A stretch of DNA of 64,000 bases from Escherichia phage vB_EcoM-LTH01: sequence record PP430345. One strand, 5' to 3'. The position numbers were made by a program, and so were the translations under genes. A model generated the notes under the pieces. The model searched no databases. It worked only from the letters and a program-made list of their open reading frames with translations, and was not told where the DNA came from. Shown one piece after another: positions 14,526 to 43,276 of the stretch. How positions within the stretch are numbered: position 1 is the stretch's first letter; every line of letters starts with the position of its first letter.

Positions 14526-16010
14526 TTAAACTATCTGACGGAATTCAATATTCTCTGCGGACAGGGCGAATACTTCAGTAACATCGGCAGATACATCTGT
14601 TCCAACATAGGAAGACTCAGGTTCTTCTACGTTCTTAATCTCAACAAAAACTTGAGTGAAACGAGATGATGCCGTTGAACTGATAACTGTACCTACCAAC
14701 TGAACGTTGTACAGAGTTCCGGCTATAATAGTCCCATTTATCGCAGTAATCAAGCTATTTGAGATAGTTGTTTCTTCGACAACAGAAAGAGGTCTTCCAC
14801 GATAGCTGATTCTCATACTCAGGTTACGAGCTTGGGCCTTCGTGTGCCAGATTGTTTCTACTTGGTCATCTTCAGTGGTGATGTTGTAGAAAGTACTCCC
14901 TGACGTATTGTTGGAACCAGCGATAGTGTCGTAAAGTACCTGACTGATTTCAGCAGTGTTACCACCGTAAACAACAGGCATGAAGGAGTAAGGAGGCACA
15001 CCAACAGAGTTTGTCTTGTCGGTATTGTTTGCAAAGATCCTTACCTTCTCTATACCCTCAACTTTGTTCAGCAGTGCAGAAAGGATCGCTGCACGAGTGG
15101 CCTTTCCTGTGTTAACTGCATCAATTGCACGGAGACGGTATTCATTATCTGATTCTACGTCTGACCCTGGGGTGAATGCAATCAGGTTCGTCAAGTCAAG
15201 GAAACCCGCCGGAACCGGACTTATTCCACGAACACTGAAAGCATCACGAGATGTTAAACCAGGCTCCGTAGCTCTAACATCCATTGTGATAGTTCTAGTA
15301 CCTGCCAATGGTTGAGTACGGAAATCGATTCTGCTTGACAAGCCGATAAGGTTCTTGTTACTATCATACCCAATGTGGATAGAGTTGGCTACGGAATCAA
15401 TAATGATTTTATCACGGTTGGACAGGATAGTGTTCTCCACAATGAAATCTTTAATTGCAGAGAAGAATGCGATAACAGGCGCACCAGTGGTGGCTGTCAA
15501 TTGATATGTCATGGTCTTGATCGATTGATCATTGATGTTCTGGATCTGTAATCGGTAACTTCCGACAGAAAGATCCGAACCACGGATGACCTGAGCAAAA
15601 ATGTTTCCTGCAACCTGAACATCGTTAGATAGACGATAATCGTTGTCGATGGTGTATGCAGAGGCAGAGTAAATCATGTTGTAAGGGATAGTGGAATCAA
15701 TGGTCAACTGAACCTGACCTGTGCTTCGAGTCTTCCCGTTACGATAAATACCACGCTTAGATAAAAGGTCGTCAAGGTAAATACCTTCTGCACCTTGCAT
15801 TGTCTGTGCGTAATAAACAGAACCCATCAACAACCAGAGTTGATATTCACGTTCGTTAAAGATAGAAATGAGTTTGTCAGCAACTGAGTTACTTTCGGTA
15901 TTGAAATCTTCACCAAATTCATTCTTGAAAGTTTTCTTCGTTTCCTGAATCAAGTCTTCCATCGGCGGGAGGTTAAATCCACTACCCGTTAGACCGTAAT
16001 TGGACGCCAT
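14526..16010 (-). CDS. baseplate J-like wedge protein
   Basis: Size and position upstream of tail fiber genes in Mu/P2-like order. Confidence 0.55.
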   Translation of the reverse strand: MASNYGLTGSGFNLPPMEDLIQETKKTFKNEFGEDFNTESNSVADKLISIFNEREYQLWLLMGSVYYAQTMQGAEGIYLDDLLSKRGIYRNGKTRSTGQVQLTIDSTIPYNMIYSASAYTIDNDYRLSNDVQVAGNIFAQVIRGSDLSVGSYRLQIQNINDQSIKTMTYQLTATTGAPVIAFFSAIKDFIVENTILSNRDKIIIDSVANSIHIGYDSNKNLIGLSSRIDFRTQPLAGTRTITMDVRATEPGLTSRDAFSVRGISPVPAGFLDLTNLIAFTPGSDVESDNEYRLRAIDAVNTGKATRAAILSALLNKVEGIEKVRIFANNTDKTNSVGVPPYSFMPVVYGGNTAEISQVLYDTIAGSNNTSGSTFYNITTEDDQVETIWHTKAQARNLSMRISYRGRPLSVVEETTISNSLITAINGTIIAGTLYNVQLVGTVISSTASSRFTQVFVEIKNVEEPESSYVGTDVSADVTEVFALSAENIEFRQIV

Positions 16011-40758: not shown

Positions 40759-41117
40759 TATTCCCCCAGTGATTTGTTATAGATATCAACTATCTCATCA
40801 TCCATAAATATTTCTTGTCCCTTTTTAGATTTTGCATAGTCGATTCTCATTGCCTCTACTTCATCACGTAATTTTTCCTCAGCGATGATCCGTTTTGCAT
40901 TTGCATAAGAAAGTTCTTCATTCAATCTCTTATTCTCTTCCAATGTAGAGTCAAGCTTTCCTTTGTACTCAGTAGCTTTCTTTATCCAAGCCGTGTTTGC
41001 AGCATCGTAGCCTTTGTCATATCCCACAGACTCAACGTGTCCGAGATACAGTTTTCCAGAAGTAAATAACGCAACGCCGATCATTGCGTAAATGAAATAT
41101 TTTTTAGCGGGTAACAT
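40758..41117 (-). CDS. inner-membrane coiled-coil protein, i-spanin-like (start at internal ATG 41117)
   Basis: AAGGAGGA RBS 7 nt before ATG (MLPAKKYFIY...); N-terminal TM then coiled-coil; upstream ATG 41174 would fall inside a terminator. Confidence 0.45.
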   Translation of the reverse strand: MLPAKKYFIYAMIGVALFTSGKLYLGHVESVGYDKGYDAANTAWIKKATEYKGKLDSTLEENKRLNEELSYANAKRIIAEEKLRDEVEAMRIDYAKSKKGQEIFMDDEIVDIYNKSLGE

Positions 41118-41154
41118 ATAAATCCTCCTTTTGGATATTTTATCACCGAAATCA

Positions 41155-41186
41155 CAAATAAAAAAGCCTCCCAAATGAGGGAGGCT
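41155..41186 (-). terminator. intrinsic terminator ending the tRNA operon
   Basis: Hairpin GCCTCCC-TCATTT-GGGAGGC followed on minus strand by TTTTTTATTTG. Confidence 0.6.
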
Positions 41187-41234
41187 GAGGCGAAGGAGAG
41201 GAGATTATATTATTGTTATTATATGAGGGTAAAT

Positions 41235-41309
41235 TGGCTGGGGATACTGGACTCGAACCAGTGAATGTTGGAATCAAAATCCAATGCCTTACCGCTTGGC
41301 TAATCCCCA
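41235..41309 (-). tRNA. tRNA-Gln (anticodon TTG)
   Basis: Manual cloverleaf: 7-bp acceptor, anticodon arm TTGGA-TTTTGAT-TCCAA, T-arm ACTGG-TTCGAGT-CCAGT, encoded CCA; close to E. coli tRNA-Gln. Confidence 0.8.
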
Positions 41310-41317
41310 TTTTTGTT

Positions 41318-41393
41318 TGGAGCGGATAACGAGACTCGAACTCGTGACATTCTGATTGGAAATCAGAAGCTCTACCAACTGAGCTATACCCGC
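41318..41393 (-). tRNA. tRNA-Gly (anticodon TCC)
   Basis: D-arm GCTCAGTTGGTAGAGC, anticodon arm TCTGA-TTTCCAA-TCAGA, T-arm ACGAG-TTCGAGT-CTCGT, CCA encoded. Confidence 0.8.
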
Positions 41394-41398
41394 ATATT

Positions 41399-41475
41399 TG
41401 GTCGGTGTACGAGGATTTGAACCTCGAACCTAATGCTCCCAAAGCATTCGCGCTACCAAGTTGCGCTATACACCG
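41399..41475 (-). tRNA. tRNA-Pro (anticodon TGG)
   Basis: Anticodon arm AATGC-TTTGGGA-GCATT, T-arm CGAGG-TTCAAAT-CCTCG, CCA encoded. Confidence 0.8.
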
Positions 41476-41479
41476 TATT

Positions 41480-41560
41480 TGGCGTGAAGGTGAAGAGTCG
41501 AACTCCTTACGACTGGTTTTGGAGGCCAGCTTGCCACCGTGACAATTATGTTACCCGCAC
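41480..41560 (-). tRNA. tRNA-Trp-like (anticodon CCA), atypical 5' half
   Basis: Anticodon loop CTCCAAA and T-arm GGAGTTCGA resemble tRNA-Trp, but acceptor pairing needs a mismatch and the D-arm region is ~5 nt too long. Confidence 0.4.
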
Positions 41561-41569
41561 ATTAATTTG

Positions 41570-41642
41570 GTTTCCGTACTGGATTCGAACCAGTATCACA
41601 ACGAGACGTTGCGGGAATCTTATCCTATAAGCCTAACGGAAA
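41570..41642 (-). tRNA. tRNA-like element, possibly non-functional
   Basis: Perfect acceptor (TTTCCGT/ACGGAAA), U8-A9 and T-arm ACTGG-TTCGAAT-CCAGT, but anticodon-position hairpin has a 3-nt TCT loop on a 7-bp stem. Confidence 0.3.
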
Positions 41643-41645
41643 ATT

Positions 41646-41732
41646 TGGTGCATTGTGATGGAGTCGAACCACCCGAGTTCTATGAACAGCAGATTTACAG
41701 TCTGCCCCGCTACCCCTACGGTCTAACAATGC
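41646..41732 (-). tRNA. tRNA-Tyr (anticodon GTA), long variable arm
   Basis: Anticodon arm GCAGA-CTGTAAA-TCTGC identical to E. coli tRNA-Tyr; variable arm GTTC-ATA-GAAC; perfect 7-bp acceptor; CCA encoded. Confidence 0.8.
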
Positions 41733-42040
41733 CTTATCCTACGGTCACACAAGTCTGACCATCTATCTCTGAGCAAGGGATTTCAAAATGTCTCCCGTCC
41801 CCAAATACATCTCGCCACATAGTCTATTCGGAAGCGGGAGTCTATGCACACCCCTTGCGGTAAGTGACCTCACTTTGAGATCAGCATCTTCCTTATTCGA
41901 CGAGTTAAATTCTCTTTAAGGTAGCCAGTGTTCGCAGCACTAACTATGAGGTATCCGTAAGATGATTTCAGTCATCTACCGAAAAATTACACCAAGCAAC
42001 TACCTTAAAGAGAACTTCTTAGTAAAGGCCCTTGCGAGCC

Positions 42041-42415
42041 TTAATCTTCACCTTCTGCCATTTTATACTCACGAATCTGAGTAGTTAATGGAATAGCATC
42101 TTTAAATGCATCAGAAGGGCCTTGATGAGTTTCTGAATTTGCAGAAGTAGTTCCTCCTGCCAGATCCTCTTCATTATCTTCCATTGTGTACAGATTGTTT
42201 GCCTTTTCAGCTTGCTCAAGAATATACTTCGCAGTAGTTTCTTTAACTTTCTCTGTACCGGAAGTCAGTAGACCTTCCAGAGTTTTAATTGCTTGAGGAG
42301 TAAGTCTTGCAAACTCGGAACGAGCATGAAGAATTGCTCTCTCAGTATTGATTGCAATGCTTTCCTCTGTAGTAGGCCGACCGCGTTTTCGAGTAACGAT
42401 TTCAGCTTTAGCCAT
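42041..42415 (-). CDS. hypothetical early protein (basic N-terminus RKRGRPTTEE, acidic C-terminus)
   Basis: ORF track 42041-42421; ATG 42415 preferred (GAGG + 5-nt spacer); promoter-like hexamers just upstream. Confidence 0.45.
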   Translation of the reverse strand: MAKAEIVTRKRGRPTTEESIAINTERAILHARSEFARLTPQAIKTLEGLLTSGTEKVKETTAKYILEQAEKANNLYTMEDNEEDLAGGTTSANSETHQGPSDAFKDAIPLTTQIREYKMAEGED

Positions 42416-42442
42416 AAACACCTCAATTCAGTCGATATAACT

Positions 42443-42471
42443 ATATTAGCAGTATAATAGGATTATGTCAA
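42443..42471 (-). promoter_or_regulatory. putative sigma70-like promoter (TTGACA-17-TAATAT)
   Basis: Consensus -35 and 4/6 -10 read on minus strand upstream of the 42415 start. Confidence 0.4.
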
Positions 42472-42607
42472 GAACTTATTGAAATGTATTAAGAAATGAA
42501 ATGGGGGTGCGCCGTTTCTGCTGTAATCTACGTCGTTATCGTTGAGGGAACTCGTAGTCAGGGAACATCAGTCCGACGACTTATCGGGAGCGACCCGACT
42601 TCTTATG

Positions 42608-42682
42608 TGGTGGCCCTGGGTGGAATCGAACCACCGTCTGGCGATTATGAGTCGCTTGCTTGAACCGTCCAGCTACAGGGCC
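42608..42682 (-). tRNA. tRNA-Met (anticodon CAT; initiator vs elongator vs tRNA-Ile2 not resolved)
   Basis: Perfect acceptor GGCCCTG/CAGGGCC, anticodon loop CTCATAA, T-arm GGTGG-TTCGATT-CCACC, discriminator A, CCA encoded. Confidence 0.75.
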
Positions 42683-42701
42683 TGTATTTAAAAGAACTTA
42701 G

Positions 42702-42780
42702 CGCGGGAGGAAGGACTCGAACCTTCATACTCCAATTACTCGATTAACGACGGTTTAGAAGACCGTTGAGATACACCCGC
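42702..42780 (-). tRNA. tRNA-Arg(TCT)-like element with non-canonical architecture
   Basis: T-arm GAAGG-TTCGAGT-CCTTC and perfect hairpin ACGGT-CTTCTAA-ACCGT, but the hairpin sits at the D-arm position; no canonical cloverleaf found. Confidence 0.3.
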
Positions 42781-43093
42781 GCTAAATTCTCTTGTGGGTG
42801 GTGACAGGTTTTGGATATTTAACGACAGGATAACCTTAAACCTCGTCATCATGACAAGGGGTACACCGTAAAAGATTGTCGTGGTATTAAAACTATAATG
42901 ATCCGTGGATCACTAATCAGACGATCTTCGACGGCTCCCCGATATACACAGGGATGGACTGGGCATCCCATTTAGTCGCAGTCAACCAAAAGCGTAAATC
43001 GCGGCGGTGGTATATTGGTTCCAACATATATTTATCCACCCAGCCTTCAAGATGACTAATCTCTCAGGCAACAAAATAATCTTACATATTTAA

Positions 43094-43276
43094 TCAGCTA
43101 TTGTCAACAGGTTTTTTACCATTAATGCAGAGATTACACATCACTGATCTCTTTGGTCCTAAAAACCTGTAACCGCAAACAAAACACTGACAAGTGTAGC
43201 CTTTTTGTTTTTCATGGTTGCGAGGATCATCGAAACTTAGAGATTCAAAGGTCTGGTCTTTCATCATACATCCCAA
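43094..43276 (-). CDS. small zinc-ribbon-like protein (CQCFVCG ... CNLC)
   Basis: ORF track; two Cys pairs. Confidence 0.4.
   Translation of the reverse strand: MGCMMKDQTFESLSFDDPRNHEKQKGYTCQCFVCGYRFLGPKRSVMCNLCINGKKPVDNS

Follow-up and report, generated by a model that had tools for sequence, protein, structure and literature searches.

The interval 41733-42040 of Escherichia phage vB_EcoM-LTH01 (sequence record PP430345) was analysed as part of a stretch of 64,000 nucleotides (nt), hereafter referred to as the window; it carries on the minus strand an RNA cassette of 111 nt, the core of which is antisense to the 3' end of abi, a plasmid gene annotated for abortive infection. The phage is a Vequintavirinae-like Escherichia coli phage with UPEC06 as its closest relative (97.6% identity across 41100-43100). 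The interval lies between an open reading frame (ORF) of 126 amino acids (aa) (42041-42421, minus strand) and the gene for tRNA-Tyr, within a minus-strand unit bounded by promoter-like sites (42471->42443 and 42088->42060) and a terminator (41186-41165). A first-pass annotation, made from the letters alone, had described it as about 300 base pairs (bp) of unexplained non-coding sequence inside the tRNA transcription unit and a candidate source of a stable small RNA. The placement is borne out, the minus-strand tRNA operon enclosing the whole interval, and so is the non-coding character: no ORF of 60 aa or more occurs on either strand (the longest has 43 aa), and for tRNAs both ARAGORN at default settings and the Rfam model RF00005 at E<=10 were empty over the interval. 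The block is, however, a composite of a hairpin, the RNA cassette, a spacer and a gene remnant and not a uniform unit. As far as comparative sequence data can tell, a structured, conserved non-tRNA RNA is encoded here on the tRNA-sense strand, as had been proposed, but it occupies only 111 of the 308 bases.

The minus strand of the interval folds at -107.6 kcal/mol (z=-4.5, compared with z=-3.0 for the plus strand), and the sub-element 41900-42022 reaches a folding z of -5.65. A suggested Rfam scan came out empty, with no family in 41733-42040 at either the gathering score or E<=10, a chance microRNA match of 16.6 bits aside; across the whole window only tRNAs reach the gathering score in Rfam 15. 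A consensus structure was derived from an alignment of 18 copies of the element. It consists of a closing stem, P1, of at least 13 bp (18-20 bp in the window), hereafter called the clamp, around the hairpin P2 (UUACU-UUAGCAG-AGUAA), the interrupted hairpin P3 and the hairpin P4 (AGUG, a 7-nt loop, CACU); the window carries a shortened hairpin, P2', in place of P2. The covariation check across related phages, likewise suggested earlier, supports this fold, since 99.7% of the cells are paired, eight pairs are altered on both sides and none of 500 shuffles did as well; pairing drops to 38-55% when the partners are slid by one to three columns. In P1, columns 6/132 covary as CG/AU/GC/UG and columns 8/130 as CG/UA/UG. 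The recurrent G-U pairs at columns 3/135, 36/42 and 100/119 would be A-C mismatches on the opposite strand, which indicates that the tRNA-sense strand is the one folded and selected. Covariation in P3 was dropped as a sign of purely structural selection in the phage, as it largely mirrors the variation among abi alleles, while the covariation of the clamp remains phage-specific. The loop of P3 has 6 nt and is variable, at odds with membership of the tRNA family, and the 'tRNA-Ile' cloverleaf that ARAGORN calls at 41917-42006 with the threshold lowered to 80% is spurious.

A search with 41905-42017 as the query identified matching stretches of about 118 nt in 149 phage records, and the canonical copy, that of phage ESCO5, identified 177. 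The carriers belong to the Vequintavirinae, the Stephanstirmvirinae (Phapecoctavirus and Justusliebigvirus) and the T5-like Tequintavirus. All the copies examined, 21 from phage records and three from IMG/VR, lie unannotated in a tRNA cluster and in the orientation of the tRNAs. Most of them are wedged exactly between two tRNAs, the 5' end directly following the CCA of tRNA-Ser and the 3' end lying 0-2 bases before tRNA-Tyr or tRNA-Lys. In the T5-like phages, a promoter closely resembling the annotated P14a of T5 precedes the element, which starts about 15 nt past its -10 box and leads directly into tRNA-Tyr. An IMG/VR scan with an exact 18-mer returned three loci, among which only L006 is a confirmed carrier (L004 and L005 have no blastn similarity), and a degenerate P2 pattern returned 16 loci, 12 of them chance matches in unrelated coding DNA.

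The part of the element that is most conserved is precisely the part complementary to abi. In the canonical element, 62 nt that take in P2, P3 and the junction share 96.8% identity with sequences in 418 plasmids (E about 1e-19 to 3e-20); of 5426 complete E. coli genomes, 168 contain a match to the element, on a plasmid in 166 cases. Conjugative plasmids of the IncI1 and IncF types make up most of those matched, ColIb-P9 among them; there abi is found a few kilobases away from the genes for colicin Ib and immunity and is convergent with a DUF4238 gene. The match always falls at the 3' end of a coding sequence (CDS) of 345 bp (114 aa) named 'abortive infection protein' or hypothetical. In every plasmid examined the phage RNA-sense strand is opposite to the abi CDS, and the phage RNA would thus be complementary to abi from its last ~17 codons through the stop codon into the proximal 3' untranslated region (UTR). 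The window copy matches the same gene in the same orientation on 12 other, rarer conjugative plasmids (84.7% over 59 nt, E=8e-9), and an exact 24-mer shared with the pRHB41-C22_2 type (41979-42002) spans the abi stop codon; the rest of the window has no further match to abi beyond the cassette segment. The complementarity is extended, as in cis-type antisense RNAs and type I antitoxins: RNAduplex gives -106 kcal/mol for the window RNA with its best allele, against -50.9 +/- 4.7 for shuffled controls. The Abi family comprises at least 74 clusters at 90% identity, nearly all of 114 aa with variable C-termini, and the protein has a long hydrophobic stretch. As the shared segment is coding sequence with its stop codon in a family of near-uniform length, it is ancestral on the plasmid side and the phages have captured it. 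The first-pass annotation had likened the RNA to the T4 RNAs of unknown function; this no longer holds for the cassette, since a specific role is indicated by its core, which copies in antisense the 3' end of an abortive-infection gene of plasmids.

Sixteen phage copies were compared with four plasmid abi alleles. The ColIb allele is matched at 100% by ESCO5, UPEC06 and SD2 over 55-56 nt and by phAPEC8 over 71 nt. The allele of pRK1 (E. coli W) is matched at 100% by the second of two heads in phage inny, the head being the part of the element enclosed by the clamp, and at 97-98% by nieznany, JLBYU50, EC.P2 and EF1-1. The RHB45-C21 allele is matched by phi92 (96.6%) and HildyBeyeler (94%), and the pRHB41-C22_2 allele by the window copy (89% over 46 nt) and the first head of inny (92%). 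RNAduplex energies agree with this allele specificity. Seven Justusliebigvirus phages share a near-identical P1 clamp and carry heads of differing allele types. Elements with two heads in one clamp, 169-178 nt long, were found in inny (L018 402-570), in L006 (9853-10021) and in L026 (7213-7390), and in these a pRHB41-type head is followed by a head of the pRK1 type (inny, L006) or of the ColIb type (L026). Read in the abi sense, the window head gives ...KMISVIYRKITPSN, which places it in the 'ITPSN' group. The differences between the window P3 and its nearest allele are compensatory (GAUGA/UCAUC versus GAUGG/CCAUC).

Table. Features in and around the interval 41733-42040 of the window
Feature	Position	Strand	Basis or remark
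RNA cassette, 111 nt, clamp stem and four-way head	41907-42017	-	homologous to 115-178-nt elements of three phage groups
P1, 5' strand of the AU-rich clamp, AAGUUCUCUUUAAGGUAG	42000-42017	-	no plasmid counterpart; column pairs covary
P2', short hairpin UUGC-UUGGU-GUAA	41987-41999	-	complementary to final codons and stop of the 'ITPSN' abi allele
P3 hairpin UUCG..AGAUGA-CUGAAA-UCAUCU..CGGA	41954-41983	-	complementary to abi codons ...KM(V/I)..I.R
Conserved junction UACCUCAUAGUU	41942-41953	-	alignment of copies
P4 hairpin AGUG-CUGCGAA-CACU	41927-41941	-	stem covaries GC/AU among phages
P1, 3' strand of the clamp, GGCUACCUUAAAGAGAAUUU	41907-41926	-	consensus fold, covariation
abi-homologous segment, antisense	41944-42002	-	84.7% over 59 nt; pRHB41-C22_2 type
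GC-rich GNRA hairpin GGCUC-GCAA-GGGCC	42027-42040	-	right after stop codon of the 126-aa ORF; kept in UPEC06 and A5-4
Spacer, 49 nt, with small hairpin GAUCUCA-AAG-UGAGGUC	41858-41906	-	common only to the close relatives UPEC06 and A5-4
PD-(D/E)XK endonuclease leader and 28-codon remnant (ORF 41734-41820, MWRDVFGDGRHFEIPCSEIDGQTCVTVG)	41734-41857	-	comparison with UPEC06
tRNA-Gln	41235-41309	-	ARAGORN
tRNA-Gly	41318-41393	-	ARAGORN
tRNA-Pro	41399-41475	-	ARAGORN
tRNA-Tyr	41646-41732	-	ARAGORN
tRNA-Met	42608-42682	-	ARAGORN
Weak tRNA	42702-42780	-	Rfam, 35.8 bits

Taken together, we consider it somewhat better than an even chance (roughly 0.55) that the cassette is an anti-Abi antisense RNA, a captured abi 3' end co-transcribed with the tRNAs, which disarms plasmid abortive infection. 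The sequences themselves establish the homology, the orientation, the allele matching, the structure with its covariation and the inter-tRNA placement. We infer the steps that would follow, namely transcription, release, pairing in vivo and silencing of abi. The cassette would be transcribed together with the phage tRNAs and, where it lies between tRNAs, released by ordinary tRNA processing: RNase P would cut where the downstream tRNA begins, and 3' maturation would free the cassette from the upstream one. The AU-rich P1 clamp would join and protect the ends of the RNA and enclose the hairpins P2, P3 and P4. The target of the head would be the final ~17 codons of the abi mRNA with the stop codon and the proximal 3' UTR, the pairing probably starting as loop-loop contacts at P2 and P3. 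Expression of abi may thereby be blocked or destroyed, for example by cleavage of the duplex and loss of the stop codon and the 3' structures from the mRNA, and the plasmid-bearing cell would be unable to abort the infection. In cells with a ColIb plasmid, infection by T5 or BF23 is aborted by way of the ibf/abi locus; the membrane potential is lost, and the pre-early protein A2 acts as the trigger (PMC10644984). T5, which is aborted in this manner (PMC10644984), is without the element and holds another cassette in that slot, a circumstantial sign that carrying the RNA may permit escape.

An alternative route to the same end is suggested by the plasmid side. When ten abi alleles are aligned in the antisense direction, a TTGACA, a 17-nt spacer and a TAGNNT, which read as a promoter, are invariant just upstream of where most phage heads begin. 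The pattern suggests that the plasmid may make an antisense RNA of its own; if such an RNA is made, the phage RNA would be an antitoxin-like mimic that takes the place of the labile plasmid RNA once host transcription is shut off. Among the ten alleles, covariation is seen in the hairpins P2 and P3 despite their location in coding sequence. Two further covarying hairpins were observed in the abi 3' UTR (L038 2900-3010; L041-L043, L045-L050), one GC-rich, terminator-like and shared with the convergent DUF4238 gene, the other with an invariant GTTGACA as its loop.

Several observations weigh against an anti-Abi antisense role. The window copy is only 84.7-89% complementary to the nearest known allele, the C-terminus '...KMISVIYRKITPSN' occurs in none of the 74 Abi clusters (the nearest being '...KMVAAIRRKITPSN'), and a 20-mer of the window P3 gave three chance matches in metagenomes and none in genomes, so that no exact cognate allele was found there. 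The window cassette is without flanking tRNAs, with an ORF upstream and the endonuclease remnant downstream, and the formation of its ends presents a difficulty; this and the imperfect complementarity are the weakest points as regards the window. The complementary bases are mostly locked within P2 and P3, and translation is not usually blocked by pairing so far downstream, at the 3' end of the mRNA. Expression of the members of the cassette family is read from their context alone. A sigma-70 consensus scan did not call the putative plasmid antisense promoter, the -10 box of which agrees with the consensus at three of six positions, and TTGACA could be conserved as a hairpin loop instead. The Abi protein is without a Pfam or PADLOC match, 'abortive infection protein' is a database name, and the 114-aa gene is presumed to be the classical ColIb abi determinant. 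The products of the ColIb ibf/abi genes were described in 2023 as unidentified (PMC10644984). A literature search of incomplete coverage found no description of the phage RNA or of an antisense regulator of abi.

Among the other explanations, it is conceivable, though unlikely, that the element is a stable RNA or a processing module of the tRNA operon, such as a tRNA-like scaffold or a handle for RNase III or RNase P. Its likeness to abi would then stem from a past exchange between phage and plasmid, and it would play no part against the plasmid. The long perfect AU-rich duplex is a plausible substrate of RNase III, the cassette abuts tRNA ends exactly, the corresponding slot of T5 holds a different cassette with an analogous clamp and no E. 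coli match, and ARAGORN calls the spurious cloverleaf on the element at the 80% threshold. A relic would, however, not be expected to keep 100% identity to one abi allele in three lineages while the clamp diverges, and neither the swaps to other abi alleles within one genus and the tandem heads of two alleles nor the greatest conservation in the abi-complementary part are explained by processing. The roles could also be reversed, the plasmid abi mRNA having evolved as a sensor of the phage RNA with the pairing activating or stabilising abi. We give this less credence still: allele-by-allele matching is symmetrical and fits an arms race in either direction, and RNA structure is conserved at the abi 3' end, but T5 triggers the ColIb abortion without the element, the trigger in the literature is the protein A2 (PMC10644984), and two tandem heads would be self-harming. 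Moreover, the shared segment, coding sequence plus stop in a 114-aa family of at least 74 clusters, points to the plasmid as its origin.

That the cassette is non-functional debris, a decaying plasmid fragment acquired by illegitimate recombination and akin to the adjoining dead endonuclease gene, appears improbable. The window copy is the most divergent known, its P2 is shortened, its minimum-free-energy fold departs from the consensus at P4 and it adjoins a genuine gene remnant; against this, 177 phage records keep the element with the clamp intact and with compensatory changes, the differences of the window P3 from its nearest allele are themselves compensatory, and the same head type recurs as the first module in inny and L026. 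Least probable of all is a role at the level of DNA, as a recombination or homing target shared with plasmids, or a plus-strand peptide resembling the Abi C-terminus. The clustering of homing endonuclease genes here, and a 40-aa plus-strand ORF (41962-42084, start MISVIYRKITPSN) that retains Abi-like residues, are what such a role could draw upon. In ColIb-type heads, however, such a peptide has no ATG to start from, the ORF runs opposite to the operon, only 55-71 nt are common to phage and plasmid, and both the G-U pairs and the covariation of the clamp point to selection on the minus-strand RNA.

The anti-Abi antisense RNA proposed here falls within a known kind, that of RNA-based counter-defence by mimicry or antisense pairing. 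The closest precedent is the pseudo-ToxI of the Pectobacterium phage PhiTE, an RNA mimic of the plasmid ToxIN type III antitoxin by which the phage escapes abortive infection and grows on otherwise suicidal hosts, and for which recombination with the plasmid can supply the sequence (PMC3594212). The two differ in that ToxI binds the toxin protein, whereas the cassette is antisense to the mRNA of the toxin-like gene and is embedded in a tRNA operon within a phage-specific clamp stem. The cassette is also natural in three phage lineages, with allele-matched and sometimes tandem heads, its function being putative. Type I antisense RNAs overlap the mRNA of their toxin, as Sok does with hok, or at the 3' end as RatA does with txpA and SR4 with bsrG, and type I toxins are small, hydrophobic membrane proteins lethal to the cell. 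The cassette resembles these antitoxins in that it is structured, has hairpin loops and is antisense to the message of a small hydrophobic protein; it differs in being encoded in trans by a virus, and Abi, at 114 aa, is larger than a typical toxin, its toxicity and its repression being putative. Other phage RNA counter-defences are the RNA anti-CRISPRs, which mimic repeats, and phage-encoded tRNAs that make up for host tRNAs cleaved by nucleases of the defence, the latter reportedly treated by van den Berg et al. in 2023. Like these, the cassette would be a non-coding RNA directed against a host defence, and in the tRNA case also one of a tRNA cluster; the proposed action is, however, antisense silencing or antitoxin mimicry of a single gene and not a decoy for Cas proteins or a refilling of tRNAs.

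In its position the cassette is like the stable RNAs rnaC and rnaD of T4 and RNAI, III, IV, 1, 2, 2H, 3 and X of T5, which lie between tRNA genes and are co-oriented with them. Those RNAs have about 70-170 nt where described (719 nt for T5 RNAX) and their release by tRNA processing is presumed, but the cassette alone has an identified external counterpart, abi. The comparison with T4 drawn in the first-pass annotation is apt as regards the presence of stable-RNA-like elements in the cluster and fails as regards kinship of the cassette: blastn of rnaC and rnaD against the window gave no match in 41733-42040 and the folds differ too, and the eight annotated T5 stable RNAs have no similarity to the interval. 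A true homologue of T4 rnaD (species 2) is found instead at 42506-42606 (minus strand), directly downstream of tRNA-Met and about 500 bases from the interval, with 86.8% identity over 53 nt at its 5' end, 92% over 25 nt at its 3' end and a divergent middle. The tRNA region of the T5 record contains eight annotated 'stable RNAs with unknown functions', and in T5 (NC_005859, L044) a cassette of about 105 nt closed by a long AU-rich stem, AUAUCUGAAUGAGAAGUAA...UUACUUUUCAUUCAAAUAU, was observed between P14a and tRNA-Tyr (15429-15535, minus strand). Searches of E. coli genomes and plasmids gave no match to this cassette, and its RNAduplex energy with abi (about -44 kcal/mol) is at background level.

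Outside the cassette, roughly 40% of the interval consists of the leader and remnant of a PD-(D/E)XK endonuclease gene. The intact orthologue in UPEC06 is a 125-aa ORF (L003 2502-2879, minus strand) that matches Pfam PF11645 (PDDEXK_5) at E=1.9e-21 and is placed between the RNA element and tRNA-Tyr, a position that holds no gene in T5-like, phAPEC8 and phiWec181 genomes. About 290 bp present in UPEC06 are deleted from the window near 41796-41799; the deletion took the catalytic core and likely the true start codon, and an intact PF11645 domain with its catalytic core is accordingly absent from the window, where 28 codons are left. The gene looks like an insertion of a free-standing homing endonuclease, since deleted in the phage of the window. 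Positions 41733-41906 have no match in E. coli genomes and plasmids. The GNRA hairpin at the other end of the interval is trailed by only three U and is for that reason at most a weak terminator or stabiliser. The 126-aa ORF directly upstream of the RNA element is kept in UPEC06 and belongs to no Pfam family.

With respect to other RNA classes, Y RNA, tmRNA, self-cleaving ribozymes and riboswitches were ruled out, being without Rfam support; a YrlA match of 42.5 bits (gathering score 69) lies off the element and spans two tRNAs at 41338-41454. A remnant of a group I intron is likewise without Rfam support, and the adjoining ORF is a free-standing endonuclease gene. Elsewhere in the cluster, two low-scoring tRNA-Arg(tct)-like genes (41568-41641 and 42703-42794, both on the minus strand) are called by ARAGORN only at the 90% threshold, the second overlapping the weak Rfam tRNA, and no tool calls a further tRNA-like stretch at 41480-41560 (minus strand), the end of which reads ...CACGCCA; the cluster thus holds more tRNA-like units than the standard annotation. 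About 300 nt of non-coding sequence (42781-43078, minus strand) lie between a strong promoter-like site (43107->43079, 10 of 12 matches) and the weak tRNA, and neither Rfam nor searches of E. coli genomes and plasmids gave a match for 42781-43080.

A wider view, held here tentatively and judged doubtful, is that phage tRNA operons may be platforms on which swappable antisense cargo RNAs, derived from defence genes of host or plasmid and held in a constant clamp, are expressed and processed. The heads would be exchanged by recombination with plasmids so as to follow the defence alleles, sometimes in tandem, and the whole would be an RNA-based anti-immunity array matched to alleles. The T5 cassette, without a match in E. 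coli or its plasmids, leaves the generalisation to other cassettes unsupported so far; if it holds, the orphan stable RNAs of the T5 and T4 tRNA clusters would be further cargos with targets not yet sampled. The abortive infection of T5 and BF23 by ColIb has been known since the 1960s, and the allele-matched antisense RNA singles out a 114-aa gene and its 3' end as the phage's probable point of attack. An anti-Abi role for the cassette, if true, would give a concrete function to at least one small RNA of the phage tRNA clusters and reveal a new route of counter-defence, in which a captured antisense fragment is delivered by the tRNA processing machinery. Phages of the rV5-like, phi92-like, phAPEC8-like and T5-like groups, all with carriers of the element, are used in phage-therapy work, and roughly 3% of complete E. 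coli genomes contain the abi match; the element could for these reasons be of use in predicting host range.

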